A stretch of 53,932 nucleotides of DNA from a virus (Duplodnaviria > Caudoviricetes), in the IMG/VR virus record IMGVR_UViG_3300030116_005302, positions 1-53,932 of that record; one strand, 5' to 3'. The notes below the pieces were generated by a model. That model saw only the letters and a list, made by a program, of their open reading frames with translations. It was not told the origin of the DNA and ran no database searches. The position numbers were made by a program, and so were the translations under genes. Positions within the stretch are counted from its first letter, which is position 1. Each line of letters begins with the position of its first letter. Positions 3,810-44,435 of the stretch are shown in pieces.

Positions 3810-3810
3810 T

Positions 3811-6800: not shown

Positions 6801-9800
6801 AGAACGTAGAGCTCCTGGGTTACAACCGTTTGCACCTGTTAATAGATCTAAAATTACAAAACCTGACGAAATAGAAAAATTTGAAACTAACTGGAAAAAA
6901 GCTGAAAGTTTAATTGTTGCTCAAAGCGATCCAGAAAATTATGTTAATCGCAATATTGATATAGATGCATTAATAAATCTTGGGGTTACTAATGTTGATG
7001 CTACTGCTCTTGGTGAGTTAGTACAAGAAACTCCTTCTGACATATCATTAGTAGAACAAACTGCTAATAATAAGTTTGCAAAAGTATCTCAAGCATATAC
7101 AGCTCTTTTAGCATTTCAAAAATATAAAGGAAGAAATAATAGTTTTGCTGAAAGAAATGTAGTTCCTATTGGACCCCAACAAACTTCAAAACAACTGCAG
7201 GATGCAGTAAGAAATACACAAAAAGATTATGAAGCTTATGTTGCTAAAAATAGAGCTGCATTAGCAGAAACTATGCATAGTAATCCTGAAGCAATGCAAG
7301 AAAGAATTACAACAGTATCAGAAGAAATAGCTAACGAATTAGATACTACTATTGTAGAAAACGTAGAGGAACAAGTAGCTACAGATCCGATTATACCTTT
7401 TGATGTCAGACAAAGGATTGCAGAGGATATAAATAACTTTAGGCGTTTTAAACAAACTGCTAGTGATGCTTTAGTAAAAAATTTCATAAGTTCTTTAGAA
7501 GCTAACCAAAGAGCAGGAAACCCTAATTTTATTTATATAAAACTTGAAGAAAATCAATTTAGGATTGTGTCTCAATCTAAAGATGTATTGGTTTCAGAAG
7601 CTATTACTGATCGTGTTAATGCACTAAATACCGATTATAAAGAAGACTCTTACAATACTACAGAATGGACGTATAGACTGGTTGGTGAATTGTTATCTCA
7701 AAGTGCAAGGGATTCTATTTTTGTATTAAAAGGTCCTAAAACAGATCATCAATCGTCTTCAACTAAAGATAAAGGTAAAAAAGCTACTTTAAAACCCGAA
7801 GGTAGTAAGATTACATTAGGTAATGTAATTAAATATGGGAAAGCTATAAATATAGCTACAGATACTGCTTTAGTTGGGGAAGGGATAACTCGTGAACAAT
7901 CAAATCAATTAGCATTAAGCAGGGCTGTAACAGAGTTAAAAAGCCTAGGGTATACTATAGAAGTAAATAATAAAGATATTTTTGATTTTTTAAGTGATAC
8001 AGAAACTCAAATTTATAAAAATAATGTAGGCAGGCTTAGGGTAAAACATGATATTAAAGACGGAGAAAAAGTTACAACTTATGTAAATGTTGCTAACAAT
8101 ATGCCTGTTGTAATGCCTAATGAGATAGTGCCTGGCCATGTAGGGACAAATGGGGAAATATTTTTAGCAAGGCTTGTAATTAGAAATGGGGTGTTACAAG
8201 ATTTTTCTAGGCTATCAGAAGCAAATAAAGAACTTTCTGACATATTAGAAACTGCTACTACATTTGAAACACGGGATGCTAAAGGCCAAGTAACTAATAA
8301 TCCATTTACTTTAGCTGATTACTTTCTTACCAAAGCCCCATTACCTGCTTCTTCTCCTCGTTACACTGTACCGGGAGAAACTCAGTATTTACGGTATAAA
8401 TCTTTTCTTAAACAAATTGAAAATCTTAAAAATGCAGAACCTGAAGTAGCTATTGATATGTCAGAAGAAGGTTTTGTAGGAGCCGCAAATTTAGAAAGAG
8501 ATAATAAAATAAGAACTTTAGAATTTGCTGCTAAAGAGCTTCTTGGAAAAGTTCATTTTATTAAATATAGCCCTGAATTTAAAGAATGGTATTTTGAATC
8601 TCGAAATATGGATTTATACGATTCTAGTGTTGAAGAGTCTATGGACTATACAACTATAAATAAAGCCATTATGGATTACATAGGCGAGGAAGTAGAAAAT
8701 AAACATATAAGAGAGTTAGATCAAGCAATAATAGACCCTACTAGAGATAAACTATATAGCAAACGAACGTATGATGTAGATGGAAATGTTGAATACCATG
8801 ATGTTGAGTTTATTGGCGAAGGAGATTTTGCTGATTTAACACAAGCAGAAATTGTAGAAGGTTTATTTACTAGTAGAAGTTATGACCCTACTTCAAAGCT
8901 TCAATACGATACTCCTGTAAATAAAATTATTAAACAAAATAATAGAAGTTTATATAAAGCTCATAATATAAAAAATAATTGGGGTAGAGGTATTCGTTTA
9001 TTTGGAAAGATTGAAGTCAATAAAAAATATGAAACATTTAAAGATTTTGCGTCAAGGGCATTTAATCTACTTAAACTTAAAACTCCTCAACATGTCATAT
9101 TATTATCAGACTTAATAGACAACAGGGATACGTATAAAGGTTTTTTTAGAGATACTTATGGGCATTTTAATGAAATTGTAAATAGGTATTTAAATCAAAC
9201 TAATGACGCTTTAAAAGATCAGCCTAATAATAAAAGTTTGTTAATATTTAAAGAAATACTTGAAGAAGGCGAAGTTACAGAAGCTATTACTAAAAAATAT
9301 ATAAAAACAAAAGACGCTGAAGTTTATCAAAATGCTGTAGACAGATTTGAAAAATTGGTAGTAGACGAGTCTTTAGGCGAAGTGCAAGCTAATGCCGATG
9401 CTCAAATAGATAGAGTAATAAATGATTTTGTAAGAAATAATGGGAAATGGCCTCTTGGTATGAATGTTCCTTTAGGCGATAGCAACATTATTGTTATGAG
9501 AGATTTTGCTGTAAAAGAAAATGCAGCCGGAGTTTATGTACGGGATAAATCTAAAGATGTATCTTTAGAATTAATGTTACCTGTTTTTGCACATGAACTA
9601 GGTCATACTTTTGTTCGAGAATCAATAGACACACTTTTAGAAGCAAGTACAAAAAATAGTGCAATTTGGAAAAATCTTAATAATTCTTTTGAAGCTAAAA
9701 AAGCAGAACTTGAAAAAAATGGCGCTACAGAACATCAATATTTTAATGGCGAAACAGGTCTTAATGAATATATAGCTGACCAAGTTGGTAGTTGGCTAAT

Positions 9801-12252
9801 GCGGGAAACTACTAAAGCTACAAATGTAGCAGAAAGCTGGGTTAAAGAAATTGCAAATAAACTAAAAAGACTTTTTAATAATCTTGCAAATGTTTTAGGA
9901 GAAGCTTTTCCAGCTTTTGAAATCAGGTTTAGAGCAGATGTTCAAACTCAAAAATTTATTACCCAGGCCATAGATAAATTAAAATTTAACCATGGTACAG
10001 AGCGTAGAATTAATAATGGAACAGGTATTCCTGGTATTTATCAAAATTCGTCTGCAGGAAAAAGTACTTTTCAGGCTTTTGAACTTGCAGGAGTTGGGCA
10101 GAGTCTTAAAAATACTTCTCCAAAAGCTATAGCCTATGCTAAAAACATGGGTAGAAAAATGTTACAAAGTGGTCCGTTTAGACTTGGAGCTAAATTTTTA
10201 GCATCAAGTGATAACTGGTTTAGAACACTTGGACCTTCTGGCGTAAAACTTGGTCAATTTTTTCATGCTCAATCTCAATCTAAAGAGATAGCAGGGTTTC
10301 ACCAATTAGCAGGTAATGCTGAAAGACGTTTTATTTATCGTGCTGAAACTATTCTTGGTTCTAAACTAAAAGAAGGTACTGAATGGCAAAACCCTGATAT
10401 CAAAGCAATTTTTGAAATTGCTGAAAATGAATCTATTGCTACAGAAGATATTATAAATCTGCCTTTTAATGACGAAATTAAAAATAAAGCAATTCGATTA
10501 CGTAAAAACTTACTAGAATATATTTACGATTCTTATATTTCAAAAGTTGATGGGGTTACTATTAGAAAAAGAGGGGATTATTTTCCAAGACAAATAGATA
10601 TGATTCTTTTAATGGAAAGTGTAGAAGCCCAAAATAAATTAGTACAAATACTTTCTGATCCTAAGTTAAATAAAAATCCTAAAGTTCCTACTGTAGATGA
10701 AGCCGCAATGATTGTTAAAGGTTTGATAGACAATCCTCTTGAAAACGGTATTGAAATTGCAAACATTTTAAACCAAGAACGATCTTTAGACTTTGATGGT
10801 ATAGATACTTCAACTTTACGAAAAGCCGGTCTTCTTCAAGAAGCTCCTCAAGCTTTATTAAGTTACATACATTTTATAACCCGTAAAGTAGAACTAGAAC
10901 GAAAAGGTGGCAAGAAAGCTTTAGACGTTATAGTTAAAGATATTGTTGATGAACAGTTTGGTCCTGAGTTTAACCCAGATGGAACTACAAGACTTCCAGA
11001 AGAATTTATTGATACTCAAACTGGAGAAGTAAATGAAGCTGGTAGAGATCAATATTTTGCTAATAGAGAAAAATTAGAAGTTGCTTTAAAAGATGCAATT
11101 AATAAACAATTTGGCCGGGTAGAACCTTTACCTAGTTACATGCGGCAGTTTAACAGCATATCTTCAGTATTAACTGTTATGACAACATTATTGTTTACAG
11201 TTTTTGCTTCTTTGCCGGATTTAGGCGCAGTTATACTAAGGCAAAAAAGTTTTGGTAATTTAATTTCTTCTATGCAGGAAATGCAGAATCGACCTTATGA
11301 AGAAAGAGTTGATTTTGCTAGAGCCGTAGGAGCAGCTACTTATGATGGATTAGAAGTAGCTTTTACTGCTGTAGGAGAAATGGATTTTGCAAATACTTGG
11401 GCTAGATCATGGATGAAAAACTGGTTTAAGTATACAGGTCTTTCTTGGTGGACTAGATTTACTAGAGTATTCGCAGCTTCTATGGGCAGGTCTTATTTAG
11501 TAAACCTTTCTAAAACTTTAGGTCCTGATAGCACAGCTACCCAAGAACAAAAAGCTCAAGCCCAAAGATGGCTAGAAGAGTTTCCCGGTCTAGAGTTAAG
11601 TGATATTTTAGCTTGGAACTCTGGCGATTCTAGCGTTGATAATGGTTTTGGTTTTGATACTCCAGAAGGAGAAAAGGTTAGAGATGCAATAGCAAGATTT
11701 GTAGATGAATCAATAATAAGACCTAATCCAGCACAACGACCTAATTGGGCAAACAATCCCTGGTTTTCTGTTTTGTTTCAACTTAAACAATTTTTCTACT
11801 CTTACGGTAAAGTAGTTATTGGTGGGGCTGGCAGAGAAATGAAAAACCGGTATTCAGAAGACGGACATTTTGGAGGAGCAGCTATGTTAATGTTAATGGC
11901 TGCTGGCACTATGTTGCCTTTAGCAGCATTGGGCATAGAAATGAAAGAACTCGCTAAATATTTACTTCAATTAGGTCTTGGGCCTATTATTCCTAATGAA
12001 GCTTTAGGAGTTAGAGAAGCTACTGGGCAAACATTTAGAAGTGATTATACTCCTACTGGCCAGTATACGTTTGAGTTAATTGAAAAAGCTGGGTGGCTAG
12101 GTCCATTATCAATGGGTGTTATGGCTGCAAATAGTAGTAGGTGGGGAGACAATCCTGTTATTGGGTCAATTCCGGTAGCTGATGCTGCTTGGGATTCTTT
12201 TGGTAAGGGGGAGTGGGTAAGATTAATGCCTATCCTTAATAATATAAGGTAA
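3811..12252 (+). CDS. Giant internal virion protein with an N-terminal lambda-R-type lysozyme and a HExxH zincin-like motif
   Basis: The ATG at 3811 follows the upstream stop at 3809. N-terminal IARAES...DHP...SSGAGAFQF..TW...DFSPESQ matches lambda-lysozyme motifs. FAHELGH...NEYIAD lies at 9586-9780, and the C-terminus has hydrophobic helices. Confidence 0.8.
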   Translation: MAVSESPRMGALLDQIARAESNNQPNVIYGGATFNDYSDHPRQYVPIVSGPNQGLKSSGAGAFQFIAPTWDIYKEKLNLPDFSPESQRIAAAELARDDYKKRTGRDLDVDLESDDPKIQQDIFRNLNKTWTSIPGGIEERPDSNWASVWGAPTIGAGPQIAAVSPSEEKPFDIAGLALNFVFPEAQAAEPDTTQSVTQEPPSGPMTSRDIDFASNVAAATSVLGDPIMTPEQVTQDLYEGSSIGYDPVYTDAIDSRGELFGRAVSSGKAGVFSSFDRLGAIYNTILGDEEAAALNLERARVRDEEASKLLDGTATFDQLLEEPDLDTFLDVSVKTVGSAVPYGIESLAGWFVGATLATMSPAVVAAGGLATVAGKASLKKIFGDILTKKLIKKEALDTDSKELIEGVHTRRKWTDRAELGGRVGGFGASYAIGAPMALEEFQEAGQELNIDTAIKSAILGAPIALIDTYTEDYLRKTLFKVARAKAATAPGNSPLKNFAKAVGGTTLKGGIGEGVAETSQEAVVAAQRLLIDPTYTLQDTYLRLGESLFGGIMAGKAFGAAGGSLAATPKLAREMLNRVREKSVLGKINTAETGVDDETVLSGRPTAEPNADLDLQLELTGLGAKDATWVSNRENVNNIARKYGIDLDSLGYDPVKVKNTNLSVARVNKAASAQPDAQDGLIFSTNENIINGVLKGGATPESLKAALGYSAVAPANADTSVQVEIKAEDGSSRVIFAQAVDGTDPEALAAAQEAAERQRARLPEQYQRSATVETIALAAALTGRQIVETKSTGDDTLGQIAAYEETGEGGVALPLDPLVQTINDLSKERDAILDQVRVDNAETYDIIKRTENRIKELVADKVQILNQIRAERDIAQPIGIEGVDPEIREFLDNVLRNNVAAGIRNEVDLYNKLFTGGLRRATQQDALQVTHPEAVDQIQTINNDIESLENSITGLENTLSSEIRNSLDSVDVRLRNTKNELQRKSLETAREEMVGAEERRAPGLQPFAPVNRSKITKPDEIEKFETNWKKAESLIVAQSDPENYVNRNIDIDALINLGVTNVDATALGELVQETPSDISLVEQTANNKFAKVSQAYTALLAFQKYKGRNNSFAERNVVPIGPQQTSKQLQDAVRNTQKDYEAYVAKNRAALAETMHSNPEAMQERITTVSEEIANELDTTIVENVEEQVATDPIIPFDVRQRIAEDINNFRRFKQTASDALVKNFISSLEANQRAGNPNFIYIKLEENQFRIVSQSKDVLVSEAITDRVNALNTDYKEDSYNTTEWTYRLVGELLSQSARDSIFVLKGPKTDHQSSSTKDKGKKATLKPEGSKITLGNVIKYGKAINIATDTALVGEGITREQSNQLALSRAVTELKSLGYTIEVNNKDIFDFLSDTETQIYKNNVGRLRVKHDIKDGEKVTTYVNVANNMPVVMPNEIVPGHVGTNGEIFLARLVIRNGVLQDFSRLSEANKELSDILETATTFETRDAKGQVTNNPFTLADYFLTKAPLPASSPRYTVPGETQYLRYKSFLKQIENLKNAEPEVAIDMSEEGFVGAANLERDNKIRTLEFAAKELLGKVHFIKYSPEFKEWYFESRNMDLYDSSVEESMDYTTINKAIMDYIGEEVENKHIRELDQAIIDPTRDKLYSKRTYDVDGNVEYHDVEFIGEGDFADLTQAEIVEGLFTSRSYDPTSKLQYDTPVNKIIKQNNRSLYKAHNIKNNWGRGIRLFGKIEVNKKYETFKDFASRAFNLLKLKTPQHVILLSDLIDNRDTYKGFFRDTYGHFNEIVNRYLNQTNDALKDQPNNKSLLIFKEILEEGEVTEAITKKYIKTKDAEVYQNAVDRFEKLVVDESLGEVQANADAQIDRVINDFVRNNGKWPLGMNVPLGDSNIIVMRDFAVKENAAGVYVRDKSKDVSLELMLPVFAHELGHTFVRESIDTLLEASTKNSAIWKNLNNSFEAKKAELEKNGATEHQYFNGETGLNEYIADQVGSWLMRETTKATNVAESWVKEIANKLKRLFNNLANVLGEAFPAFEIRFRADVQTQKFITQAIDKLKFNHGTERRINNGTGIPGIYQNSSAGKSTFQAFELAGVGQSLKNTSPKAIAYAKNMGRKMLQSGPFRLGAKFLASSDNWFRTLGPSGVKLGQFFHAQSQSKEIAGFHQLAGNAERRFIYRAETILGSKLKEGTEWQNPDIKAIFEIAENESIATEDIINLPFNDEIKNKAIRLRKNLLEYIYDSYISKVDGVTIRKRGDYFPRQIDMILLMESVEAQNKLVQILSDPKLNKNPKVPTVDEAAMIVKGLIDNPLENGIEIANILNQERSLDFDGIDTSTLRKAGLLQEAPQALLSYIHFITRKVELERKGGKKALDVIVKDIVDEQFGPEFNPDGTTRLPEEFIDTQTGEVNEAGRDQYFANREKLEVALKDAINKQFGRVEPLPSYMRQFNSISSVLTVMTTLLFTVFASLPDLGAVILRQKSFGNLISSMQEMQNRPYEERVDFARAVGAATYDGLEVAFTAVGEMDFANTWARSWMKNWFKYTGLSWWTRFTRVFAASMGRSYLVNLSKTLGPDSTATQEQKAQAQRWLEEFPGLELSDILAWNSGDSSVDNGFGFDTPEGEKVRDAIARFVDESIIRPNPAQRPNWANNPWFSVLFQLKQFFYSYGKVVIGGAGREMKNRYSEDGHFGGAAMLMLMAAGTMLPLAALGIEMKELAKYLLQLGLGPIIPNEALGVREATGQTFRSDYTPTGQYTFELIEKAGWLGPLSMGVMAANSSRWGDNPVIGSIPVADAAWDSFGKGEWVRLMPILNNIR

Positions 12253-18108: not shown

Positions 18109-18314
18109 TGGAAAACACCGAAAGAATACATGAACTAACCGCTCGGCTTGAAGCTCATGTTGCACGTTGCGAAGAACGGGATAAAACTATATTTAATGAT
18201 TTAGCTGAGTTAAAAGAAGAATTAAAAGATTTTCGTATGCTAATGACAAAGATTGGTGTTCTGTTAACATCTGGTGTAGCGGGGACATTGGTAACAGTTT
18301 TATTGAGGGGATAA
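18108..18314 (+). CDS. Small coiled-coil protein with a C-terminal TM helix (XhlA/holin-like)
   Basis: LEAHVARCEER coiled coil followed by a hydrophobic tail. Confidence 0.55.
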   Translation: MENTERIHELTARLEAHVARCEERDKTIFNDLAELKEELKDFRMLMTKIGVLLTSGVAGTLVTVLLRG

Positions 18315-20371
18315 TGGCTTATTTTAAAATTAATAGATTTAAAGGGATTGCTCCAGCCGTTTCTCCAAGACTTTTAGCAGAAGGCATAGGCCAAACTGCA
18401 GAAAATGTAGATCTTGAAAGTGGTAGACTTGTTCCTATTCAAAATGACGATAGTGATTTTGATGCTACTACTTCAGTTCCAAATGAAGTAGCTCTTCCAA
18501 ATGCAAATAAAAAAAGTATATTTGTTTATAATGATACTACTTGGTTAACTAATTTTGGTGATAATCTTAATATAGATTTACTTGATAGTCCTGTAATAAA
18601 TGATGCCTATGATCGTATTTATTTTACAGGGGATACTTTTCCTAAATATAGTTTTAATACTTCTATTACATCAGGCTCAGGAGCTAAACCTGATGTTGTG
18701 TACAGATTAGGTATCCCTGCTCCTGATAGTGCTCTTAGTGTTTCTGTTAGCGGAAGTGCTGATGCTGGAGCTCTAACAAATGATGTATCTTATGTATATA
18801 CATTTGTATTAGGTACTGGAGAAGAAGGGCCTCCAAGCCCTGCAAGCACTGTAACTCAATTAGCAAATGGGCAAACTGCAAATTTATCTGCTATTGATGA
18901 TACTCTTCCTACTCATCCAGGTGGGGGCAGTATTAATTATTATACTACTGGGCTTAAAAGAAGAATTTATAGATCAAATACTGGCTCTACTAATACCGAG
19001 TTTCAATTTGTAAAAGACATTAGTAGTGGTACTACTACTACAGATACTGCAGATGCTGATGCTTTAGGTGAAATTTTACCTAGTACAACATGGATAGGTC
19101 CTCCGGATGATAATTCTTCTGATTATCCTGATGGGCAAATGTTAGGTTTAACTTTTATAGCAAACGGTGTTTTTGCTGGCTTTTCTGGTAGAATGCTTTG
19201 TTTTAGTGAACCTTTTTTACCTCATGCATGGCCTGCAGATTACAGATTAACTTTAGATAGAAATATTGTAGGGCTTGGGGTTACTACTAATGGTATAGCA
19301 GTAATGACAGAAGGTTCGCCTTATTTTGTAGGTGGCACTGATCCGGGGTCAATGACTGCAATTAAATTAGATAGCGCCCAAGCTTGTTTAAACAAAAATT
19401 CTATTGTTGATATGGGTGATTATGTATTATATGCAGGGCCCGATGGACTTGTTGCTATATCGGGCAACGAAGTTCAAATAGTATCTAAAGGTGTTATATC
19501 TCCTGAACAATGGAAAGATGCTGCAGGTACTTTTAGACCCGCTGCTATATCCGCTTTTAGATATAAAGAAACTTATGTTGCATTTGATTTAAGTAGTTCT
19601 ACTGGTTGGGTGTATGATCCCAAAGGGCAAGAAAATATGTTTACTACTTTGTCTTCTGCTTCTGCAGTACGTGGGGGGTATGAAGATCTTACTAATGGAG
19701 ATTTATATTTAATAGTAGGTTCAGCTATACATAAATATAGAGAAGGCGATACTACTCAAACTTTAACTTATAAATCAGGTAAGTTTGTTACTCCAGCTCC
19801 TATGAGTATGAGTTATGTATCTGTTGATGCTGACTCTTTTGCAACAAACCCAGTAGTTGTTAAGGTTTTTGGAGATGGTACGTTAATATCTAACTATTCT
19901 CTTGTTCTTTACAAAGAAACTATAGCCGAAAGCGCAGTTAACGAATCTACTGATGTTATTACTATAGCTGCTCATGGTTTTGAAACCGGAGCTTCTGTTA
20001 CTTATAATGCTGAAGGAGGAGGAACTGCTTTAACATTAAGTACAGGCGCTGTATCTGATGGAGATGAACTTTTTGTTATTGTTGTTTCTTCTAGCACTAT
20101 TAAATTAGCTTCTACCAGGGATAATGCATTTGCAAATACCGCTGTTACTATAACTAATGATGGTAATGATTCTCAAACATTAACTAGCGGAAATCTTCTT
20201 CAACAAACTACAACTGTACCTAGCGGTATATCTACCAAAGCATATTTACAAGAGCCTATAATGCGGCTTCCTGCTACTATAGCCCAAGAGTGGGAAGTAC
20301 AAATTGAAACTAAACAAACAATTAATGATGTATGTATTGCGCAAAGTATTGATGAAATAAAGGCGACTTAA
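18314..20371 (+). CDS. Tail nozzle/stabilization protein
   Basis: 685 aa with F.GI.P..SPRLL at the N-terminus, YVYTFV...GEEGPPSPAS, RIYRS and FSEPF.PHAWP, typical of beta-propeller podovirus tail proteins. Confidence 0.75.
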   Translation: MAYFKINRFKGIAPAVSPRLLAEGIGQTAENVDLESGRLVPIQNDDSDFDATTSVPNEVALPNANKKSIFVYNDTTWLTNFGDNLNIDLLDSPVINDAYDRIYFTGDTFPKYSFNTSITSGSGAKPDVVYRLGIPAPDSALSVSVSGSADAGALTNDVSYVYTFVLGTGEEGPPSPASTVTQLANGQTANLSAIDDTLPTHPGGGSINYYTTGLKRRIYRSNTGSTNTEFQFVKDISSGTTTTDTADADALGEILPSTTWIGPPDDNSSDYPDGQMLGLTFIANGVFAGFSGRMLCFSEPFLPHAWPADYRLTLDRNIVGLGVTTNGIAVMTEGSPYFVGGTDPGSMTAIKLDSAQACLNKNSIVDMGDYVLYAGPDGLVAISGNEVQIVSKGVISPEQWKDAAGTFRPAAISAFRYKETYVAFDLSSSTGWVYDPKGQENMFTTLSSASAVRGGYEDLTNGDLYLIVGSAIHKYREGDTTQTLTYKSGKFVTPAPMSMSYVSVDADSFATNPVVVKVFGDGTLISNYSLVLYKETIAESAVNESTDVITIAAHGFETGASVTYNAEGGGTALTLSTGAVSDGDELFVIVVSSSTIKLASTRDNAFANTAVTITNDGNDSQTLTSGNLLQQTTTVPSGISTKAYLQEPIMRLPATIAQEWEVQIETKQTINDVCIAQSIDEIKAT

Positions 20372-37506: not shown

Positions 37507-38048
37507 ATGACTGTCTCCTTTTGTACAGAGTTCATGGTTATTGTGTAGTATCTTTTATATGGGTCATCTAATATTGCATTTTCTATTTTTTTCTCCAATT
37601 GTTTATGGGTATTAAGTCCGCACCAACGTCTAATTGTTCGTGCTGAAGAAGGCCCACGTTTAAATATTCTGTCATTAATTATCATAAGATCCATGTCTTC
37701 ATTAATGCATTGAAAGTTTGCAGCCAAGAACGCTACTCTAAATGGAATTTTTATATCGTATAAATTCTGTGAAGGAGCAGGTTCTCTTAATTTTTCTGCA
37801 TAATCAGGTAATACAGCTACTTCATACTGATAAGATGTAGCTATTTTATGTAAAATAGTAAGCCGTGCTTTATCTTTTGGATAATTTAAATATGTATCTG
37901 TATAACCATACTCCCACGGAGTAGTATAGGTTGTGACCATATCTTCTGGAGTTTGAAGTATAGGGTTTAGATCAATACTGTGTTCTACATACATGCAAGC
38001 ACTTAGCTCATTTACAAGACTGGTTATAAATTTGTTTTCATATTTCAT
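37503..38048 (-). CDS. Hypothetical protein
   Basis: 181 aa, with ATGA overlaps on both sides. Confidence 0.7.
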   Translation of the reverse strand: MKYENKFITSLVNELSACMYVEHSIDLNPILQTPEDMVTTYTTPWEYGYTDTYLNYPKDKARLTILHKIATSYQYEVAVLPDYAEKLREPAPSQNLYDIKIPFRVAFLAANFQCINEDMDLMIINDRIFKRGPSSARTIRRWCGLNTHKQLEKKIENAILDDPYKRYYTITMNSVQKETVI

Positions 38049-38482
38049 TCGTTCCTTCCTATTCTGATATTCAATTGTTCTCGATTAAATAAAGCCAAGT
38101 ACTCATCTTTTAATCTTTCTCCGATATTAGATATTTTTTTCGCTTTGAAACAAGCTTCTTTATAGTTTCTATCCTGGTCAGCCTTGTACAATTCTTTAAT
38201 ATGTTTTTGTAACTGGCACACAAAATGTGCGATATCTGTTTCTGGGAATTTATTTTTTCTTTCTAACTTATCTAACTCTCCACGTATTTTTTCAGTGGCA
38301 GCTGCTATGTAAGTATTCTCTATGTAAGCTTCAAGACTCTCTGGGTTACAACCGCCAAGAGTATCGCGCATGTTATTCAATACATCATTCATCTCTAGCT
38401 TTAGATTGGTTTCATCAAGATCAGGATGTAGTTTTGCAAACAAAGGCAGGTATGGTTCTGCCCATTCATTTACGAACGGCAT
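38045..38482 (-). CDS. Hypothetical protein
   Basis: 145 aa; GAGGAG RBS. Confidence 0.7.
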   Translation of the reverse strand: MPFVNEWAEPYLPLFAKLHPDLDETNLKLEMNDVLNNMRDTLGGCNPESLEAYIENTYIAAATEKIRGELDKLERKNKFPETDIAHFVCQLQKHIKELYKADQDRNYKEACFKAKKISNIGERLKDEYLALFNREQLNIRIGRNE

Positions 38483-38570
38483 TATCTATCTCCTCTATAA
38501 CTTTAATTAATTTTTCTGCGAGCTCAGTGTCTTCGTCTGTATCAAATTCGATGGTGATTTTAATTTTCAC
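38466..38570 (-). CDS. Possible 34-aa protein
   Basis: GTG start overlapping the upstream stop; MKIKITIEFDTDEDTELAEKLIKVIEEIDNAVRK. Confidence 0.5.
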   Translation of the reverse strand: MKIKITIEFDTDEDTELAEKLIKVIEEIDNAVRK

Positions 38571-38848
38571 TACATCTTCCTTATTTCTTCATACTCAGTG
38601 AACTCGTCAGGATCTTCATGCTTGTCGATTTCTTCTTCAATGATTACATCTTCTTGAATAGAAAAGTTTGGGTCCAGGTTTTCGATTGTAATTGTAGGCC
38701 CATACTTGACCATGATAGTTATAGTTTTAGTAGGATCTTTAGGGTCTCTTTCTTTAGTACTCCAGAGCCCACGAGGATCCAGCTTTTTAATTTCTCCGAT
38801 TACTGTAGTAGCAACCGTTTTAAATTTATCTGGTATTTGTATCCACAT
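38570..38848 (-). CDS. Hypothetical early protein with an acidic tail
   Basis: 92 aa; AAGGAG RBS. Confidence 0.7.
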   Translation of the reverse strand: MWIQIPDKFKTVATTVIGEIKKLDPRGLWSTKERDPKDPTKTITIMVKYGPTITIENLDPNFSIQEDVIIEEEIDKHEDPDEFTEYEEIRKM

Positions 38849-38849
38849 A

Positions 38850-39089
38850 TCAATCTCCTTTTGTTATTTGCGATAGTGCTGTTTCATACCTTGCATAATT
38901 TTCGTTGTACATTTCCATTAGTTTTTCGATAGCTTTAACACCTTCTTCTTTACCATCACGCAAGCCACTTCTATATCCTCTATCAAAGGCCTTTGCTACT
39001 TCCAGTTCATATTGCTCCATGTCCTGTGCAATAGCATGTTCTGCTGCCTGCATAGTTTCATTGTAATGTTTATCTTCCTGATCACTCAT
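38850..39089 (-). CDS. Hypothetical early protein
   Basis: 79 aa; GAGGAG RBS; contains a short GxxxG run (FDRGYRSGLRDGKEEG). Confidence 0.7.
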   Translation of the reverse strand: MSDQEDKHYNETMQAAEHAIAQDMEQYELEVAKAFDRGYRSGLRDGKEEGVKAIEKLMEMYNENYARYETALSQITKGD

Positions 39090-39289
39090 ACTAGATTCTC
39101 CTCGTGATTAACTGATTGATAAAGGGAATCAACTGTCTCCCTGTACTCTGCCCGATCATATCTTTCAATAGGTATCTCAGATACAAGCAAGCGAAACTTT
39201 GCAAGCTTAACTCTTTCACTTACTAATCTGGTTTTCATAGCAGCTAGTTCTTCCTGCAGTTCTACATTAGTCTTTCTGTTCTTCGGCAT
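39086..39289 (-). CDS. Hypothetical early protein
   Basis: 67 aa; AAGGAG RBS. Confidence 0.7.
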   Translation of the reverse strand: MPKNRKTNVELQEELAAMKTRLVSERVKLAKFRLLVSEIPIERYDRAEYRETVDSLYQSVNHEENLV

Positions 39290-39488
39290 AGTAATCTCCT
39301 TCAGATGTTACCCATCTGTTTCCAACTTCTAATGCTTCGTCTTTATCTTTACAGAACTCTACCCAAGGTAGATATGTTTCTTCTCCAGGGTACATGTACA
39401 CCTTGTACATATCTGCGGTTGATAAATACTCAACGTCTGCAGATTTTCCTGTGGTATAACAATGTAGTTTTATCTTCTTCATAGGCAT
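39267..39488 (-). CDS. Hypothetical early protein
   Basis: Start revised to the ATG at 39488, behind AAGGAGG. Confidence 0.65.
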   Translation of the reverse strand: MPMKKIKLHCYTTGKSADVEYLSTADMYKVYMYPGEETYLPWVEFCKDKDEALEVGNRWVTSEGDYYAEEQKD

Positions 39489-39530
39489 GGTAGTCCTCCT
39501 TTTTGCCGTGCAAGCTAGTCCCCCCAGTAT

Positions 39531-39564
39531 AAAAAAACCCCAGCTCAAATACATGAGCCAGGGC
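39531..39564 (-). terminator. Rho-independent terminator
   Basis: Minus strand CCCTGGCTCA-tgtatt-TGAGCTGGGG-TTTTTTT. Confidence 0.7.
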
Positions 39565-39723
39565 TTCTCAAGGAGGACGCTACTTTGAACTCACGCAGGA
39601 GTAGCCAACCTACGGACACCGAGGGCCGTGTCATATTTACCGCTGTCTTCTCTGTGTCTAGGCTTATTACAGTTCGGTAGCTCACATATTTTTATAGTAG
39701 ACGGAGCACAACTACTACCGTAG

Positions 39724-40518
39724 CTAGCACTTGATAGTAAATGCTAGCGTTTCCTTACCAGTAAGACGCGAACCTTTGACAGTACGGTGATTCTCGTCAA
39801 TGTATGTAGCTGATCGTATCAACTTGAACACAATCTGATTACGTACTCTTTTGACAGTAGCATCAGACAGATAGTTTGGTTGCTTGTTCCAACCAGCTTT
39901 CTCCCATGCCATGGTATGCAACAGATACCATGTACCTGCTTCACGAGAACTGTTCATCATAGCTTCCTGGTACTTTTCCAAATACTCAGGCAGGTCACCA
40001 GACAAATCAGCCTTGGATGCTTGAGACTCGAACAGATACCTACGGTATGCCCGCTCTGCCAATGCAGACTCACAAGCGTTACCGATACCTGATACAAGAC
40101 CAAATACTTTTGGCTTGGAACAACCAGATATCATCGACTGGTAGGCATCGTCCATTACCTTGTGGTCTGGGTCGTTAGTACCAAAGTCAATCATACCTTG
40201 AAGGTTATCCGCTTCCATACCTTCACGGTACGCAGATACTACAGCTTCAACTGTAGCTTCAGTAGGTATCAGATGCATCTGACCATCAGGCCATTCCTTA
40301 CCCCAGTAGTCCAAGCTACTTGGCTTATAATCTCGAAGCGCCCACTCCGGGAACTCTGGATTATCGACTGCATCTTGTCTGGCAGTAGCTCCTTCAGGGT
40401 CAGCGATAGTATCGTCTCGCACTGCAACATTCAGGTCAGTCTTATCAGGTGCTACTAGCTCTTCACGATCACCTAGATCACGAGGGTCTATACTTGGTGC
40501 ATAATTAGTCAACGTCAT
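39724..40518 (-). CDS. Hypothetical early protein (264 aa)
   Basis: Long ORF with an AAGGAG RBS; no recognised motif. Confidence 0.8.
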   Translation of the reverse strand: MTLTNYAPSIDPRDLGDREELVAPDKTDLNVAVRDDTIADPEGATARQDAVDNPEFPEWALRDYKPSSLDYWGKEWPDGQMHLIPTEATVEAVVSAYREGMEADNLQGMIDFGTNDPDHKVMDDAYQSMISGCSKPKVFGLVSGIGNACESALAERAYRRYLFESQASKADLSGDLPEYLEKYQEAMMNSSREAGTWYLLHTMAWEKAGWNKQPNYLSDATVKRVRNQIVFKLIRSATYIDENHRTVKGSRLTGKETLAFTIKC

Positions 40519-40606
40519 AGTAATTCTCCTTAAGATTAGGATTAACAGTTACAAGGACTAAGTCCTCATTAAATAAACTCTCTATAAAAATCAATATCTC
40601 TTCCAT
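40505..40606 (-). CDS. Possible 33-aa acidic peptide
   Basis: AAGGAGGT RBS; MEEILIFIESLFNEDLVLVTVNPNLKENYYDVD. Confidence 0.45.
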   Translation of the reverse strand: MEEILIFIESLFNEDLVLVTVNPNLKENYYDVD

Positions 40607-40678
40607 GAAATACCTCCTTGATAGAAAAAAGAGAGAAAAAATAACAATAAAAAGTCTCCGATTAATATAAAAATATCT

Positions 40679-41035
40679 TTATGCCACCTCCTTTATCATT
40701 GGTAGATGTGCCCATGCACTTGCTACTTCTGCTATTAATACTTGTACATGTTCAATGTCATTTACATCGTTTAATTTTTTTGCACGGAAGCATTTCCTAA
40801 TACAATGCAGATACAAATCATTTAATTTCTCGGACAATTCATAACCTTTTTCTTTACCTTCCGTTAATGACGCCTGCAATGCGAACAATAACTCTACAGC
40901 TCGGTTGATTTCTCGGTCTTTATCCTCTAGTGCACCACTGCGCATTGCATCTTCTGCTTTACCGAGGGCTTCCAATAATGCAGTAAGCAATTGCATAATT
41001 AGTTCAATTCCGTCTTTCATTTCTTCTTTTTTCAT
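40679..41035 (-). CDS. fliS: FliS-like flagellin export chaperone homologue
   Basis: ELIMQL....L..L.KA..A.......K...INRA.ELL..LQASL...KG.ELS.KL..LY......L/C..A...ND...IE.V..LI.EV.SAW matches the FliS four-helix pattern. ATG at 41035 behind AAGGAGG. Confidence 0.8.
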   Translation of the reverse strand: MKKEEMKDGIELIMQLLTALLEALGKAEDAMRSGALEDKDREINRAVELLFALQASLTEGKEKGYELSEKLNDLYLHCIRKCFRAKKLNDVNDIEHVQVLIAEVASAWAHLPMIKEVA

Positions 41036-41069
41036 GTCATATCCTCCTTGAAATGGATAAATAATTAAA

Positions 41070-41119
41070 AAATACAATGGAAAATGCTCACTCGAAGACC
41101 CCGTGAGGGGGCTGAGTGG
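41070..41119 (-). promoter_or_regulatory. Early hairpin cassette D (upstream of the fliS-like gene)
   Basis: Plus strand AAATACAATGGAAAATGC followed by a CCCC-GTGA-GGGG stem-loop. Confidence 0.65.
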
Positions 41120-41136
41120 TTAATTTTTAACCGATT

Positions 41137-41425
41137 TGTGCCAGTAACAAGGCCTTGTGCCAGCACTGTGCCAGCAACTGTGCCATGTAAAACGAGCCTT
41201 AAGTATTTGTATTGCATAATGAATCATGGTTCTGTGCCACTTGTGCCACTTACTTTTACTAAGTTAAACATAGAACATATTTATTATTTAACGCCCGCAT
41301 ATTGTAAACCAACTTGAAAATGCTGGCACAGCTGGCACAACTGGCACAGATTTACGATTTATGGTTTACGATCAATGGTTTACGTCCGTGCCAGCAAGCA
41401 AATCCTGTCTGGCACAGGTGGCACG
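41137..41425. repeat. Inverted iteron array (TGTGCCA/TGGCACA), probable replication origin
   Basis: TGTGCCA at 41137, 41156, 41167, 41179, 41233 and 41242; AT-rich core at ~41250-41320; TGGCACA at 41324, 41333, 41342 and 41410; variants at 41387 and 41419. Confidence 0.75.
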
Positions 41426-41573
41426 AAGCGTTATTATGTGGTGCCTCGCGCTTGGACGTGGTTCTTGGAGCAAGAATGCTTGTCACTTGCAAGCAAGCAA
41501 CGCCCGCAAGCATAAACCTTGGGCAAGCAAGCATGGACCCCGATACAAGCCCGGCATCCATAACGCCCGCATA

Positions 41574-41606
41574 ATAAAAAAACCCCCCAGACTTTCGTCC
41601 GGGAGG
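41574..41606 (-). terminator. Rho-independent terminator
   Basis: Minus strand CCTCCCGGAC-GAAA-GTCTGGGGG-TTTTTTT, downstream of gene 41624..41836. Confidence 0.8.
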
Positions 41607-41623
41607 CTTCTCTAGGAGGAAAC

Positions 41624-41836
41624 TTATTCAAAGATATATACTTCACAGGCTATCCTCTTAACCTGGTATATCTGGTTCTGTCCATCAAACACTTGGCATC
41701 TTAAACCGTCTCTTTCCCACACTAACGCGAGAGTCGAGGCTTGACTGGCTGATACGTCAGACCAACCTGCAAAGTGGTCGTAGATTACTAACACTAGACC
41801 TGCAACAACAGCCCATAATACTATTTTAGTTTTCAT
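41624..41836 (-). CDS. Small early protein with an N-terminal TM/signal segment
   Basis: GAGGAG RBS; MKTKIVLWAVVAGLVLVIY; two Cys. Confidence 0.7.
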   Translation of the reverse strand: MKTKIVLWAVVAGLVLVIYDHFAGWSDVSASQASTLALVWERDGLRCQVFDGQNQIYQVKRIACEVYIFE

Positions 41837-42013
41837 TTACTTCTCCTCCTTTAGCTTGGCTTCTTCCTCAGCTACTGCTTTGGCAAAGTCATTTCCTGCT
41901 TGCTTAACGTAAGCCACTGCTTTCGGAGTAACTCTCTTAAGCCAGGTGCCCACTACTCGTGTGCCAGCTACTGCTTTATCTTTTAACTCTTCAGTATTTA
42001 CTTCTACTTTCAT
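41837..42013 (-). CDS. 58-aa early protein (absent from the ORF track)
   Basis: AGGAGG RBS; MKVEVNTEELKDKAVAGTRVVGTWLKRVTPKAVAYVKQAGNDFAKAVAEEEAKLKEEK. Confidence 0.7.
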   Translation of the reverse strand: MKVEVNTEELKDKAVAGTRVVGTWLKRVTPKAVAYVKQAGNDFAKAVAEEEAKLKEEK

Positions 42014-42046
42014 CTCTATCCTCCTAGATAGTTAAATTAAACTAAG

Positions 42047-42100
42047 AAATACAATAAAAAATGCCGACTATCAGATTCCGCGAGGAACCTGATAGTCAGC
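42047..42100 (-). promoter_or_regulatory. Early hairpin cassette C
   Basis: Plus strand AAATACAATAAAAAATGC overlapping the stem GCCGACTATCAG-ATTCC-GCGA-GGAAC-CTGATAGTCAGC. Confidence 0.7.
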
Positions 42101-42107
42101 TGTTGGG

Positions 42108-42416
42108 TTATGACTCTAAGTCGAGCTCTTTGTCTGCGTCTGTAGCTTTCCTATGAATCCAAATACCACCTTTGAAGTCAAATTCTCCAGTGCTGTATGC
42201 AGATTCTATAAGGAGTTCAGCTTCTTGTCCGTTCTTAAGCATACCCTTAGACTCAACGACACATTTCACAATGCCTTTATCATCGTAAGACCATGCACAC
42301 CAGGCTCTAACTCTACCATTAGGTAGCTTGATAGCCTTGATTGTTACGGCATTGTGAAGCCTCCAATAAGGCCGTTCTTCCCATTGGTTAGTATTGTTTT
42401 GATTTTCTGTAGTCAT
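42108..42416 (-). CDS. Hypothetical early protein (102 aa)
   Basis: Start revised to the ATG at 42416, behind AGGAGG. Confidence 0.75.
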   Translation of the reverse strand: MTTENQNNTNQWEERPYWRLHNAVTIKAIKLPNGRVRAWCAWSYDDKGIVKCVVESKGMLKNGQEAELLIESAYSTGEFDFKGGIWIHRKATDADKELDLES

Positions 42417-42445
42417 GATAGACCTCCTAGTTAAATTGAAATAAA

Positions 42446-42490
42446 AAATACAATAGAAAATGCAAACTACGGCCATCGTGAGATGGCCAT
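42446..42490 (-). promoter_or_regulatory. Early hairpin cassette B (45-bp direct repeat)
   Basis: AAATACAATAGAAAATGCAAACTAC-GGCCATC-GTGA-GATGGCC-AT; 44/45 identical to 42699-42743. Confidence 0.8.
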
Positions 42491-42512
42491 AGAATGCTAG
42501 AAGATGCTTGGG

Positions 42513-42668
42513 CTAAGTTTCAGACTCTGGCATTGGTAAAACCAAAGTGTTTCCTTCGAAGCCTAGTGCTATTAGTTCTTCGAAAGTTTTATTAGCGTAT
42601 TTTTCGTTAAACTCCTTAAAAGACATATGTTTAGGAATTATTATAGTCTCGACTAGTTCTTCTTCCAT
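42513..42668 (-). CDS. 51-aa acidic early protein (absent from the ORF track)
   Basis: GGAGGA RBS; MEEELVETIIIPKHMSFKEFNEKYANKTFEELIALGFEGNTLVLPMPESET; flanked by the two 45-bp repeats. Confidence 0.7.
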   Translation of the reverse strand: MEEELVETIIIPKHMSFKEFNEKYANKTFEELIALGFEGNTLVLPMPESET

Positions 42669-42698
42669 AAGTTCCTCCATGGATAAGTAATTAATAAT

Positions 42699-42743
42699 AA
42701 ATACAATAGAAAATGCAAACTACGGTCATCGTGAGATGGCCAT
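42699..42743 (-). promoter_or_regulatory. Early hairpin cassette A (45-bp direct repeat)
   Basis: Same as cassette B, with one C>T change in the stem. Confidence 0.8.
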
Positions 42744-42871
42744 TGATTGCGAGTGAATGAATTACGATTGAGTGGACGAGTAACAAAGATAGAGAGCGTA
42801 TGCGAACGTGTGTCTAGACACATCTTTGTTACGTAGTCCACGATTGAGTAATGAGCGAGCAATGGAATGGA

Positions 42872-43045
42872 TTAGATTTCAGTGAATACGTTGTATCCAT
42901 CCATGAAACCCCTAATGGATTCAGAGATGATTTCCGATGTTTCGGCTTCTACCCATTTTCCGTTTTCCCAGGTTCGTTGTAAGTAGATGATTTTCGTGAG
43001 TGTTACTTCTAGTACATAGATGAAAGCTAAGAAGATGATAGTCAT
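42872..43045 (-). CDS. Possible first early gene (57 aa)
   Basis: ATG at 43045 behind GAGGT; hydrophobic N-terminus. Confidence 0.45.
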   Translation of the reverse strand: MTIIFLAFIYVLEVTLTKIIYLQRTWENGKWVEAETSEIISESIRGFMDGYNVFTEI

Positions 43046-43327
43046 GGTACATACCTCATGATTGATTGAAGTTAAATAATTCATAGAAGTTGCTTACTGA
43101 CACAATGCGCGAGCGTTGGGTCCTCTTTGCAAATGGGGCCCCATACGTAAAATGCAAAACAAGGTTCCAATATGAAAATCGGGGGTTAGGTGTGCTGTGG
43201 AGGCAAGGTATAGATGAGTGACAGAGCGGTATATACAAAAAATTTTTTGAAAATTTTTTCAGCAAAAATTTGCCAAACAACTTGTTTATCCTGTATATTT
43301 CAGAAAATTAACCATAATTCGTAGGCC

Positions 43328-43837
43328 ATGGACAAAGATATCGAACCATCGGAACAGTACGAAGTCCCCGAGCATGTGGAATTCCAGTCCAAAATGCCGT
43401 ACATGGGGCTACATACTAATGAATTAACGGTCCAGGAAGAGCGTTTCATCAATTTAATAGCAAGTGGCATGACAATTACTGCTGCTGGACGTGCTGTCGG
43501 GTATAAAACACGGCATTATGCCAGCAGGGTTGCTAATAAACCCAAGATTAAACAAGCACTTGACTATCTCAAACAGGAATTACGTGAAGAAACCAAGTTT
43601 ACACGGGCTCATGCGCATAAAATGTACATGGATACGTACATTGCGTCTGCAAATGCTACAGAAATGAAAGGCACCGTGGATTCTTTGTGTAAGTTGCACG
43701 GATTACACCAGCCTGACAACGCAACTCAGGTCAATATTAATGTAAATGGGGTAAAACAGCTGGAAAGAATGAGTGATGAAGAGTTACTTAAGATAGCTGG
43801 GCACTCCGAAAACTATCTGGAGCCTGATAATGGCTGA
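43328..43837 (+). CDS. terS: Terminase small subunit
   Basis: HTH-like LT.QEERF...GMT.TAA.RAVGY, C-terminal KLHGL...ERMSDEELL; upstream of TerL. Confidence 0.8.
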   Translation: MDKDIEPSEQYEVPEHVEFQSKMPYMGLHTNELTVQEERFINLIASGMTITAAGRAVGYKTRHYASRVANKPKIKQALDYLKQELREETKFTRAHAHKMYMDTYIASANATEMKGTVDSLCKLHGLHQPDNATQVNINVNGVKQLERMSDEELLKIAGHSENYLEPDNG

Positions 43838-44435
43838 AGAAAGAAGTACTTTTAATTTTAAAGAAGCCGATATAAAAAGTTTTTTGGATAATCCCTCAAT
43901 TGAGGGTTTTGGTAAACTTACTGCAGGTGCAAATGCTGCAAATGTCCGTCCTTCTACCCCAAATATGGAGGAATCTTCACAGCGTATGGAGATGTCTAAA
44001 CTAGGTAGAGGTGCTTCTAGTGAAATGGGCGGAAATTTACATGGCGCTCTTCCTAAATCTGACCCTCGTTATAAACGGAATAAGTTAAATACCAGTATAG
44101 GGGGGTCTATTGAAGACGTGCCCTTGTATTCTAATGAAAATATGGGCATAACAGGTTCGGCAAGAGCTAATATATCTAATTTAATCGGGGACCTTCCTCC
44201 TGTTTTAGCTACAATTGGCGGTGTAAATATAACTTTTCCCAAAAGCAGTTTTGGTATTGGTATAGATTACGGTGAAACCCGGACATTGGGCGGCATGCCT
44301 TCAAATACTTACCAAACAGGTAATATTTCTGCCAGAAAAGATGATGTGTTTGGGGGGACTCTTGGTGCTAATGTAAGGTTTGCTGAAAATCAAGACCCGT
44401 ATTTTGGCCTGACTTATAATAAAAGGTTTGATTAA
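43830..44435 (+). CDS. Hypothetical protein with a beta-barrel-like C-terminal half
   Basis: Alternating Gly/hydrophobic strands ending in YFGLTYNKRFD. Confidence 0.65.
   Translation: MAEERSTFNFKEADIKSFLDNPSIEGFGKLTAGANAANVRPSTPNMEESSQRMEMSKLGRGASSEMGGNLHGALPKSDPRYKRNKLNTSIGGSIEDVPLYSNENMGITGSARANISNLIGDLPPVLATIGGVNITFPKSSFGIGIDYGETRTLGGMPSNTYQTGNISARKDDVFGGTLGANVRFAENQDPYFGLTYNKRFD

Follow-up and report, generated by a model that had tools for sequence, protein, structure and literature searches.

A FliS-family protein without the FlhA-docking helix in a tailed phage: a candidate decoy for flagellar export clients

In Salmonella, the N-terminal helix of the flagellar chaperone FliS is the primary docking site for FlhA-C, through Ile7, Tyr10 and Val13 (PMC5932034). 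This helix is buried and autoinhibitory in the free chaperone and is freed on flagellin binding; Tyr10 is essential for the FliS-FlhA-C complex, and flagellin itself makes no FlhA-C contact in that structure (PMC5932034). Secretion of the flagellin FliC is reduced by FliS(Y10S) (PMC8527033). The last ~40 residues of flagellin wrap the four-helix core of FliS, and helices 3 and 4 contact flagellin in solved complexes (PMC7248283). In addition, FliS binds FlgM and holds back its secretion, so that sigma-28 stays in check (PMC8527033; also PMC7248283), an effect known in Salmonella and Yersinia (PMC8527033, PMC7248283). Here we describe a FliS-like gene at positions 40679-41035 (minus strand) of the record IMGVR_UViG_3300030116_005302, which represents an uncultivated marine tailed phage; the window, as used below, is the whole analysed stretch of 53,932 nucleotides. 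An earlier note on this DNA had presented the gene product as a FliS homologue without the N-terminal cap. The premises from which it argued, that the N-terminal segment acts as a cap, that its Tyr docks to FlhA and that FliS binds FlgM, agree with what the cited parts of these papers describe (PMC5932034, PMC8527033). We tentatively propose, at a probability of roughly 40%, that the protein is a phage-captured FliS without the FlhA-docking helix that would act as a non-docking decoy or trap of flagellin and/or FlgM.

The phage protein is like bacterial FliS (PF02561; PDB 6CH3; P0171 of strain HTCC2207) in family, in its four-helix bundle and in most core residues. It differs in that ~16-20 N-terminal residues including the FlhA-docking Tyr are gone, in a score below the TIGR00208 cut-off together with a phage-specific invariant C-terminal tail, and in the position of its gene, which lies in a putative early region instead of a flagellin-fliD-fliS operon or flagellar cluster. 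The proposed role resembles that of Salmonella FliS(Y10S), which holds flagellin, docks poorly to FlhA and gives lower FliC secretion (PMC8527033), but this mutant is one substitution in the host's only copy, whereas the phage would supply a second, helix-less copy over wild-type FliS. A natural antagonist that limits filament growth via FliS-flagellin delivery to FlhA is known in FlaG of Campylobacter jejuni (PMC11536152); FlaG, however, is a host protein unrelated to FliS that competes at FlhA, while the proposed competition by the phage protein is over the substrate. Phage inhibitors of type IV pili, such as PfsE of Pf phage, are likewise small phage proteins that disable a host motility organelle from inside (PMC8764522), but these act on the pilus machinery and share no homology with a host chaperone.

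FliS fold and missing N-terminal helix

The gene and its ribosome-binding site (RBS) are placed as follows:

40679-41035 (stop codon at 40679-40681), minus strand: FliS-like coding sequence of 118 aa, four-helix FliS core without the N-terminal FlhA-docking helix
41043-41048, minus strand: Shine-Dalgarno motif AGGAGG, 7 nt 5' of the ATG, read from the sequence

Translation of the minus strand between these positions gives the residues quoted by the earlier note. An alternative TTG start at 41077, which would add 14 residues in the window, was rejected: it lacks an RBS, and four out of four relatives have a stop in frame 1-5 codons ahead of the ATG.

The 118-aa protein (P0001) matches the Pfam FliS family PF02561 with an E value of 6e-17 and 62.4 bits, which passes the gathering cut-off of 26.7. 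Its residues 8-110 lie on profile positions 13-113 of 115, and the first 12 positions are without a match. When solved structures were searched by sequence, the best match was the Salmonella FliS-FliC fusion 6ch3_B (E 1.4e-7, query residues 12-111 on chain residues 27-125), followed by the FliS proteins of H. pylori and B. subtilis. The AlphaFold2 (AF2) model, built with 20 relatives in the alignment, has a predicted local distance difference test score (pLDDT) of 88 and a predicted template modelling score (pTM) of 0.83, with helices at residues 3-33, 36-62, 69-88 and 91-109. Foldseek against the Protein Data Bank (PDB) placed FliS chains at all of ranks 1-8 (TM 0.76-0.79, rmsd 1.4-2.5). Because the sequence-profile matches and the predicted fold agree, the open reading frame (ORF) is a true FliS-family protein by sequence and fold. 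The homology proposed by the earlier note, for which it had named AlphaFold and Foldseek as the check, thus holds, and a generic helical bundle unrelated to FliS is ruled out by the PF02561 score and the Foldseek ranking. PHROGs has no family for the protein, its sole row being a function-less family at E 0.13.

Searching 1.84 billion representative proteins with a profile of the phage family gave 2,328 matches at E <= 0.001, among which only the family's own two clusters were better than 1e-30 and the next match stood at 2e-19. The best 150 of the 2,328 matches were re-aligned locally, and 147 of these are non-family proteins. Most of the 147 (119) have 12-19 residues ahead of the phage start, 3 have 7-11, 14 have at least 21 and 11 have none. 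For the column analysis, 117 full-length bacterial relatives were aligned with 18 of the 20 phage-family members. Thirty of the 147 non-family rows were dropped for an N-extension outside 10-25 residues, a length outside 120-160 aa or a match ending before profile position 108, and on the family side P0002 (odd C-terminus) and P0007 (short) were left out.

The cap Tyr is present in 115/117 bacterial relatives and in 0/18 phage-family members, where the column is empty; P0001 has its first Tyr at residue 65 and none before. The portion gone amounts to ~16-20 N-terminal residues including this Tyr. The earlier note had described the conserved AY......TASP segment as missing altogether. The first part of this stands, as the helix that carries the Tyr is gone, but 'TASP' is not wholly lost, since K7-D8-G9 of the phage protein align to the bacterial A-[D/S]-P columns, where the closest bacterial relatives read A-D-G. 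As judged from this alignment, the loss is confined to the FlhA-docking helix with its conserved Tyr. At the minor FlhA interface, Salmonella Leu44 and Phe45 align to phage Asp29 and Ala30, and the same columns vary among bacteria too.

The 11 of the 147 non-family representatives that also start at or after helix 1 were looked up except for P0080. Each of these 10 represents a cluster of one to three members; their contigs span 965-23,116 bp, mostly a few kb or less, and longer members exist in two of the clusters. For the most part they appear to reflect miscalled starts or genes cut short, a call from which P0154, P0155 and P0163 are excepted. The observation of a capless phage FliS is confirmed as real and lies far beyond chance.

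The core is retained. The motifs that had been read from the sequence beforehand are all in place, namely L53-Q-A-S-L57, L71..L74-Y75, N89-D90 and E103-V-A-S-A-W108, and the bacterial sequences are strongly conserved at these columns (L53 117/117, L57 117/117, Y75 116/117, D90 100/117, W108 117/117). In sixteen columns, 100 or more of the 117 bacterial sequences agree on a residue, and the majority of the phage family agrees with them in 13: L12, L16, A27, I/L49, L53, L57, G64, L71, L74, Y75, Y77, D90 and W108.

Conservation in the phage family and origin of the gene

A word-indexed search returned 22 proteins including the query, with 20 full-length relatives of 113-133 aa at 63-100% identity and two chimeric fragments. 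The 20 relatives are of marine source, e.g. Tara. All of them bar one shortened call have the N-terminus MKKEE or MNKE in common, and all 20 end in EVA. The ratio of nonsynonymous to synonymous substitution rates (dN/dS) lies between 0.26 and 0.64 and is below 1 in 10/10 pairs, which indicates purifying, fairly relaxed selection on the gene. A metagenome scan gave six family loci and two bacterial loci, and in every family locus that is long enough the FliS-like gene stands between a GTGCCA repeat region (or a small inserted ORF) and a homologue of a 264-aa ORF. Since 20 relatives have a common N-terminus and the upstream in-frame stops, the dN/dS values and the fixed synteny of 6/6 family loci point the same way, the short form is, on these sequence comparisons, a selected trait of the phage lineage and not a broken gene.

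The relative L022 lies on a 57.7-kb contig; its large terminase subunit (TerL) and ATPase are both 95% identical to those of the window, while its FliS-like protein is 64% identical. With the 264-aa ORF at ~35%, the region of the FliS-like gene therefore evolves much faster than the core, and the gene appears to evolve like a host-interaction gene.

The best bacterial match belongs to a cluster that holds the FliS proteins of the marine gammaproteobacterium HTCC2207 (P0171), a SAR92 clade isolate and Porticoccaceae metagenome-assembled genomes (MAGs). P0001 is 38% identical to the nearest of them over 105 residues, with phage residue 8 on bacterial residue 24. A quick maximum-likelihood tree of 83 rows (11 of the 20 family members, the 60 best of the 117 bacterial sequences and 12 locus-derived FliS sequences), which carries support only from the Shimodaira-Hasegawa-like approximate likelihood ratio test (SH-aLRT) and for which the careful search is unfinished, places the phage sequences in a single clade (support 100), which forms a polytomy together with Porticoccaceae/SAR92 and unnamed marine sequences. 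Porticoccaceae/SAR92 bacteria have flagellin genes. The host is possibly a flagellated marine gammaproteobacterium near Porticoccaceae, which we treat as a lead and not as a result because the tree is unresolved and the GC content of SAR92/Porticoccaceae loci is ~50% compared with 38% for the phage; naming a host was rejected for the same reasons.

The bacterial loci L009, L025 and L026 have fliD-fliS or fliS-fliT-like neighbours. In L009, an uncultured gammaproteobacterial MAG with a GC content of 38%, fliS is succeeded by a small ORF and then by a 456-aa ORF at 980-2350, read by eye as a putative FleQ-type sigma-54-dependent activator. Sequence words of 39700-43300 occur in 20 DNA sequencing runs from 8 studies and in 0 RNA runs. 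Five of the runs (X7 and X12-X15) carry an organism label other than 'metagenome' and hold 0.48-0.81 of the sampled words of this region, which could point to a host-containing culture.

A decoy role and its alternatives

A FliS body without the N-terminal helix would have an open client site and no means to dock. The gene would be switched on early by way of its own cassette and translated from a strong RBS, and the capless protein would bind a FliS client, namely flagellin as it is synthesised and perhaps FlgM, the anti-sigma factor, too. This client could not be handed to FlhA, and the phage protein, if produced early and in quantity, and host FliS would be competitors for flagellin and/or FlgM. 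The outcome would be a dominant-negative block of filament-type export and, if FlgM is also retained, a shutdown of late flagellar gene expression. The phage would likely benefit by stopping a costly host programme or by altering a flagellar receptor. A flagellin-like client for the protein is not encoded in the phage record itself (domain search at E <= 1), which we count in favour of a trap. Beyond the loss of the helix and the retention of the core, we infer client binding, failure to dock, the flagellar effect and the benefit from anatomy, because the computations spoke neither for nor against binding: the co-fold of the phage protein with residues 316-410 of the 410-aa HTCC2207 flagellin (L013:529-1758) scored 0.09 against a mark of 0.32, was run without controls and has no bearing on binding. 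The trap interpretation of the earlier note is supported in part, in that the anatomy fits a decoy that would not dock.

Several observations weigh against such a decoy. Client binding is predicted from anatomy, and in a lytic phage a block of new filaments leaves the existing flagella in place, so that the benefit is unclear. The protein reaches 50.7 bits with the NCBIfam FliS equivalog model TIGR00208 (profile positions 22-118 of 124), below the cut-off of 53.75. Three of the 16 top columns are not kept by the majority of the phage family, as the cap Tyr is absent, a Leu is replaced by Cys82 in 18/18 members and a Glu column holds Glu in nine members and His in the other nine. The window's own copy has His at this split column and, in addition, His77 at a conserved Tyr column that holds Tyr in 17/18 family members. 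The C-terminal tail L-P-x-x-K-E-V-A (residues 111-118, encoded at 40679-40705) has L111, P112, E116, V117 and A118 invariant in 20/20 relatives, while bacterial FliS tails vary and offer no counterpart, which hints at an additional interaction. The stem of the phage clade, 0.89 changes per column, is compatible with a change of partner, and with the GC mismatch and the polytomy the proposed host is a lead only. The tail residues 113-118 are disordered in the AF2 model (pLDDT <50), and the tail may be a candidate short linear interaction or degradation motif.

Some of these observations would be expected if the FliS scaffold had been captured long ago and re-purposed as a helical bundle that now binds a non-flagellar host protein or a phage protein and leaves flagella unaffected. 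The length of the stem and the 38% identity to the nearest bacterial FliS would fit such a history, as would the residues Cys82, Lys70, Tyr65 and Gly9, which are invariant in the phage family yet unlike the bacterial consensus, the disordered tail with its EVA end in 20/20 members, the score under the equivalog cut-off, and the adjacent 264-aa ORF, which has no fold match and co-varies in rate. We nevertheless consider this rather unlikely. Thirteen of the 16 top FliS columns are kept, including L-x-x-L-Y, N-D and W108, many of them on the flagellin-contacting helices 3 and 4 (PMC7248283). What is lost is confined to the FlhA-docking helix, as a decoy would require, and the phage encodes no flagellin-like client (domain search at E <= 1).

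Phages do carry host-like auxiliary genes, and the kept core residues would also suit an ordinary helper chaperone that stabilises flagellin and supports export, so that the host stays motile during infection, with FlhA docking dispensable or otherwise provided. This is quite improbable, as the docking Tyr of 115/117 bacterial relatives, including the nearest SAR92 FliS, is absent from the phage protein, and the host has its own fliS already. Both FlhA interfaces of Salmonella are missing as well (PMC5932034). A regulator centred on FlgM, which would hold FlgM as its main client in the cytoplasm or compete for it with FliA and thereby re-set late flagellar and chemotaxis transcription, is improbable too. 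Such a role could build on the binding of FlgM by FliS and the suppressed FlgM secretion in Salmonella and Yersinia (PMC8527033, PMC7248283), and a capless FliS would, by extension from the Salmonella structure, have its client pocket permanently open (PMC5932034), but binding of the phage protein to FlgM is a prediction. For the sigma-28 -10 consensus, the phage shows no enrichment (34 sites with one mismatch where 28.2 are expected, 0 exact), and it therefore does not obviously use sigma-28. Lastly, the gene is truncated relative to bacterial fliS and could be read as a decaying, non-functional remnant of a captured copy; with ~20 relatives that have the same start, dN/dS below 1 in 10/10 pairs, a strong RBS, fixed synteny and a confidently predicted fold this is highly improbable.

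The reading of the protein as a non-docking decoy, tentative as it is, would make it a virus-encoded dominant-negative type III secretion chaperone and possibly the first described viral inhibitor of flagellar assembly from inside the cell. If true, it would be a natural counterpart of the laboratory FliS Tyr10 mutants. Since the phage protein has the body of the chaperone but not its docking and autoinhibitory helix, it is a clean natural experiment on FliS. Trapping of flagellin would be a novel means of taking over a host among abundant marine bacteria and provide a compact genetic tool to halt filament growth, and it would support a two-step model in which substrate binding is followed by helix release and FlhA docking. 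If another partner is bound, the protein would be an example of viral re-use of a secretion chaperone fold.

Phage proteins that switch off pili are already known and so is the FliS family, while for the phage-borne capless form no precedent was found. There was no match in a megablast search of 38000-44000 against phages, in a tblastn search of P0001 against 50,697 phage records (INPHARED) at E <= 0.01, or in a structure search of BFVD at E <= 0.001. Scans with the phage-family alignment confirmed 0 of 215 candidate stretches in IMG/VR and 0 of 45 candidates in contigs of GTDB species genomes; the phage records, IMG/VR and GTDB as searched may lack entries very close to the window. Full-text literature searches returned no paper on a phage-encoded FliS and none that reports a phage protein acting on flagellar export, and a superinfection-exclusion review from 2024 contains the string 'flagell' in its reference list only (PMC11436027).

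Searching the phage collection with SAR92 FliS gave two matches, the faecal contigs L025 (MT836129.1) and L026 (MT836588.1), both filed as UNVERIFIED 'Bacteriophage sp.'. These were rejected as phage-borne FliS: they carry flagellin, FliD and a full-length FliS, one of them also pyruvate formate-lyase, and are bacterial DNA filed as phage. A Protein Atlas FliS cluster of 57 members labelled 'Viruses 50%' scored 0.88, which is under the level that counts; it is a lead only and perhaps represents the phage family or another one.

Genomic context and repeated cassette

The phage record of 53,932 bp is estimated to be 92% complete, has linear ends and a GC content of 37.9%, and no tRNA genes were found in it. 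The cultured phage closest by TerL is Aeromonas phage phiA008, at just 48% identity. A plus-strand module starts at 43328, continues past the end of the record and closes at ~23549; it encodes the small and large terminase subunits, the portal, the major head protein, internal virion proteins, tail fibres and a 2823-aa virion protein. The minus-strand module runs from 42476 to 24245; it opens with small ORFs without assigned function and continues with an ATPase, an HNH endonuclease, a helicase, a DNA polymerase, a primase-like protein and an exonuclease. Counting ORFs of at least 30 aa, the FliS-like gene is the fifth minus-strand ORF after a divergent region at ~42.9-43.3 kb. A position beside the divergent region is the usual site of early, host-directed phage genes. 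The FliS-like gene lies in the minus-strand block beside this region, is small and evolves fast compared with core genes, and from its map position it is probably an early gene.

The elements around the gene are:

41070-41087, minus strand: 18-mer GCATTTTCCATTGTATTT, 34 nt 5' of the FliS-like ATG, putatively promoter-like or a terminator tail
41089-41118, minus strand: stem-loop abutting the 18-mer on its upstream side (-14.3 kcal/mol, z -2.83)
42047-42064, minus strand: sister copy of the 18-mer, ahead of a 58-aa ORF at 41837-42013
42446-42463, minus strand: sister copy of the 18-mer, ahead of the ORF that ends at 42108
42699-42716, minus strand: sister copy of the 18-mer, ahead of a 55-aa ORF at 42513-42680
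41136-41424, both orientations: non-coding (C/T)TGTGCCA(G/C) repeats with an AT-rich centre, just 5' of the FliS-like cassette
40505-40606, minus strand: 33-aa ORF that lies 3' of the FliS-like gene and overlaps the start of the 264-aa ORF; conserved in L017 and L018
39724-40518, minus strand: 264-aa ORF, co-oriented and 3' of the FliS-like gene; position kept in all relatives that reach that far

Four copies of the 18-mer GCATTTTNNATTGTATTT stand in the window, where 0.19 would be expected; all lie within 41070-42716 of the minus strand, each 18-34 nt 5' of the start of a small ORF. Directly 5' of every copy stands a stem-loop (region 41070-42754; z -8.09, -6.96 and -2.74 for the sisters), and two of the four stem-loops are terminator-like by scan. 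The 'own early cassette' and strong RBS that had been attributed to the FliS-like gene are thus real as anatomy, the gene being preceded by one of four hairpin-plus-18-mer units and by AGGAGG at 7 nt from its ATG. The unit is probably a phage-specific regulatory element, with a promoter, a terminator-promoter pair or a processing site as candidates. No Rfam family reached its gathering score in 40400-43400. A sigma-70 scan gave 10 sites against 9.2 expected and is therefore uninformative.

The cassettes vary among relatives. In L018 and L022, an extra small ORF stands between the cassette unit and the FliS-like gene, and a 37-nt repeat that covers the RBS and first codons (41014-41050 in the window) starts this extra ORF (L018:417-453, L022:9657-9693), which suggests cassette shuffling or insertion by recombination at a shared translation start.

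The repeat region at 41136-41424 holds 12 of the window's 26 GTGCCA sites. The spacing of its repeats is kept in L017, L019 and L022, with 80% nucleotide identity to L022, and the region is a candidate replication origin or operator array. TGGCAC equals the sigma-54 -24 element, but a sigma-54 promoter at these repeats was rejected, as the spacing, judged by eye against the consensus, does not fit.

The 264-aa ORF on the other side of the gene is 35-40% identical in L020-L022, compared with 95% for TerL, and is thus fast like the FliS-like gene. It has no PHROG and no Pfam family. Its AF2 model, built from 5 sequences, is mostly helical (pLDDT 70) and has no PDB match at E <= 0.001. In line with the earlier note, which had seen no other recognisable flagellar gene nearby, none of the ten ORFs neighbouring the FliS-like gene has a Pfam family, and neither a flagellin N-terminal nor a C-terminal domain occurs anywhere in the phage record at E <= 1.

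Two products of the plus-strand module bear on the type of virion:

3781-12252, plus strand: 2823-aa virion protein; its N-terminal part has a peptidase/lysozyme-like match, and its C-terminal part matches virion structural proteins
18314-20371, plus strand: internal virion protein

Together, they suggest a podovirus-like ejection apparatus.

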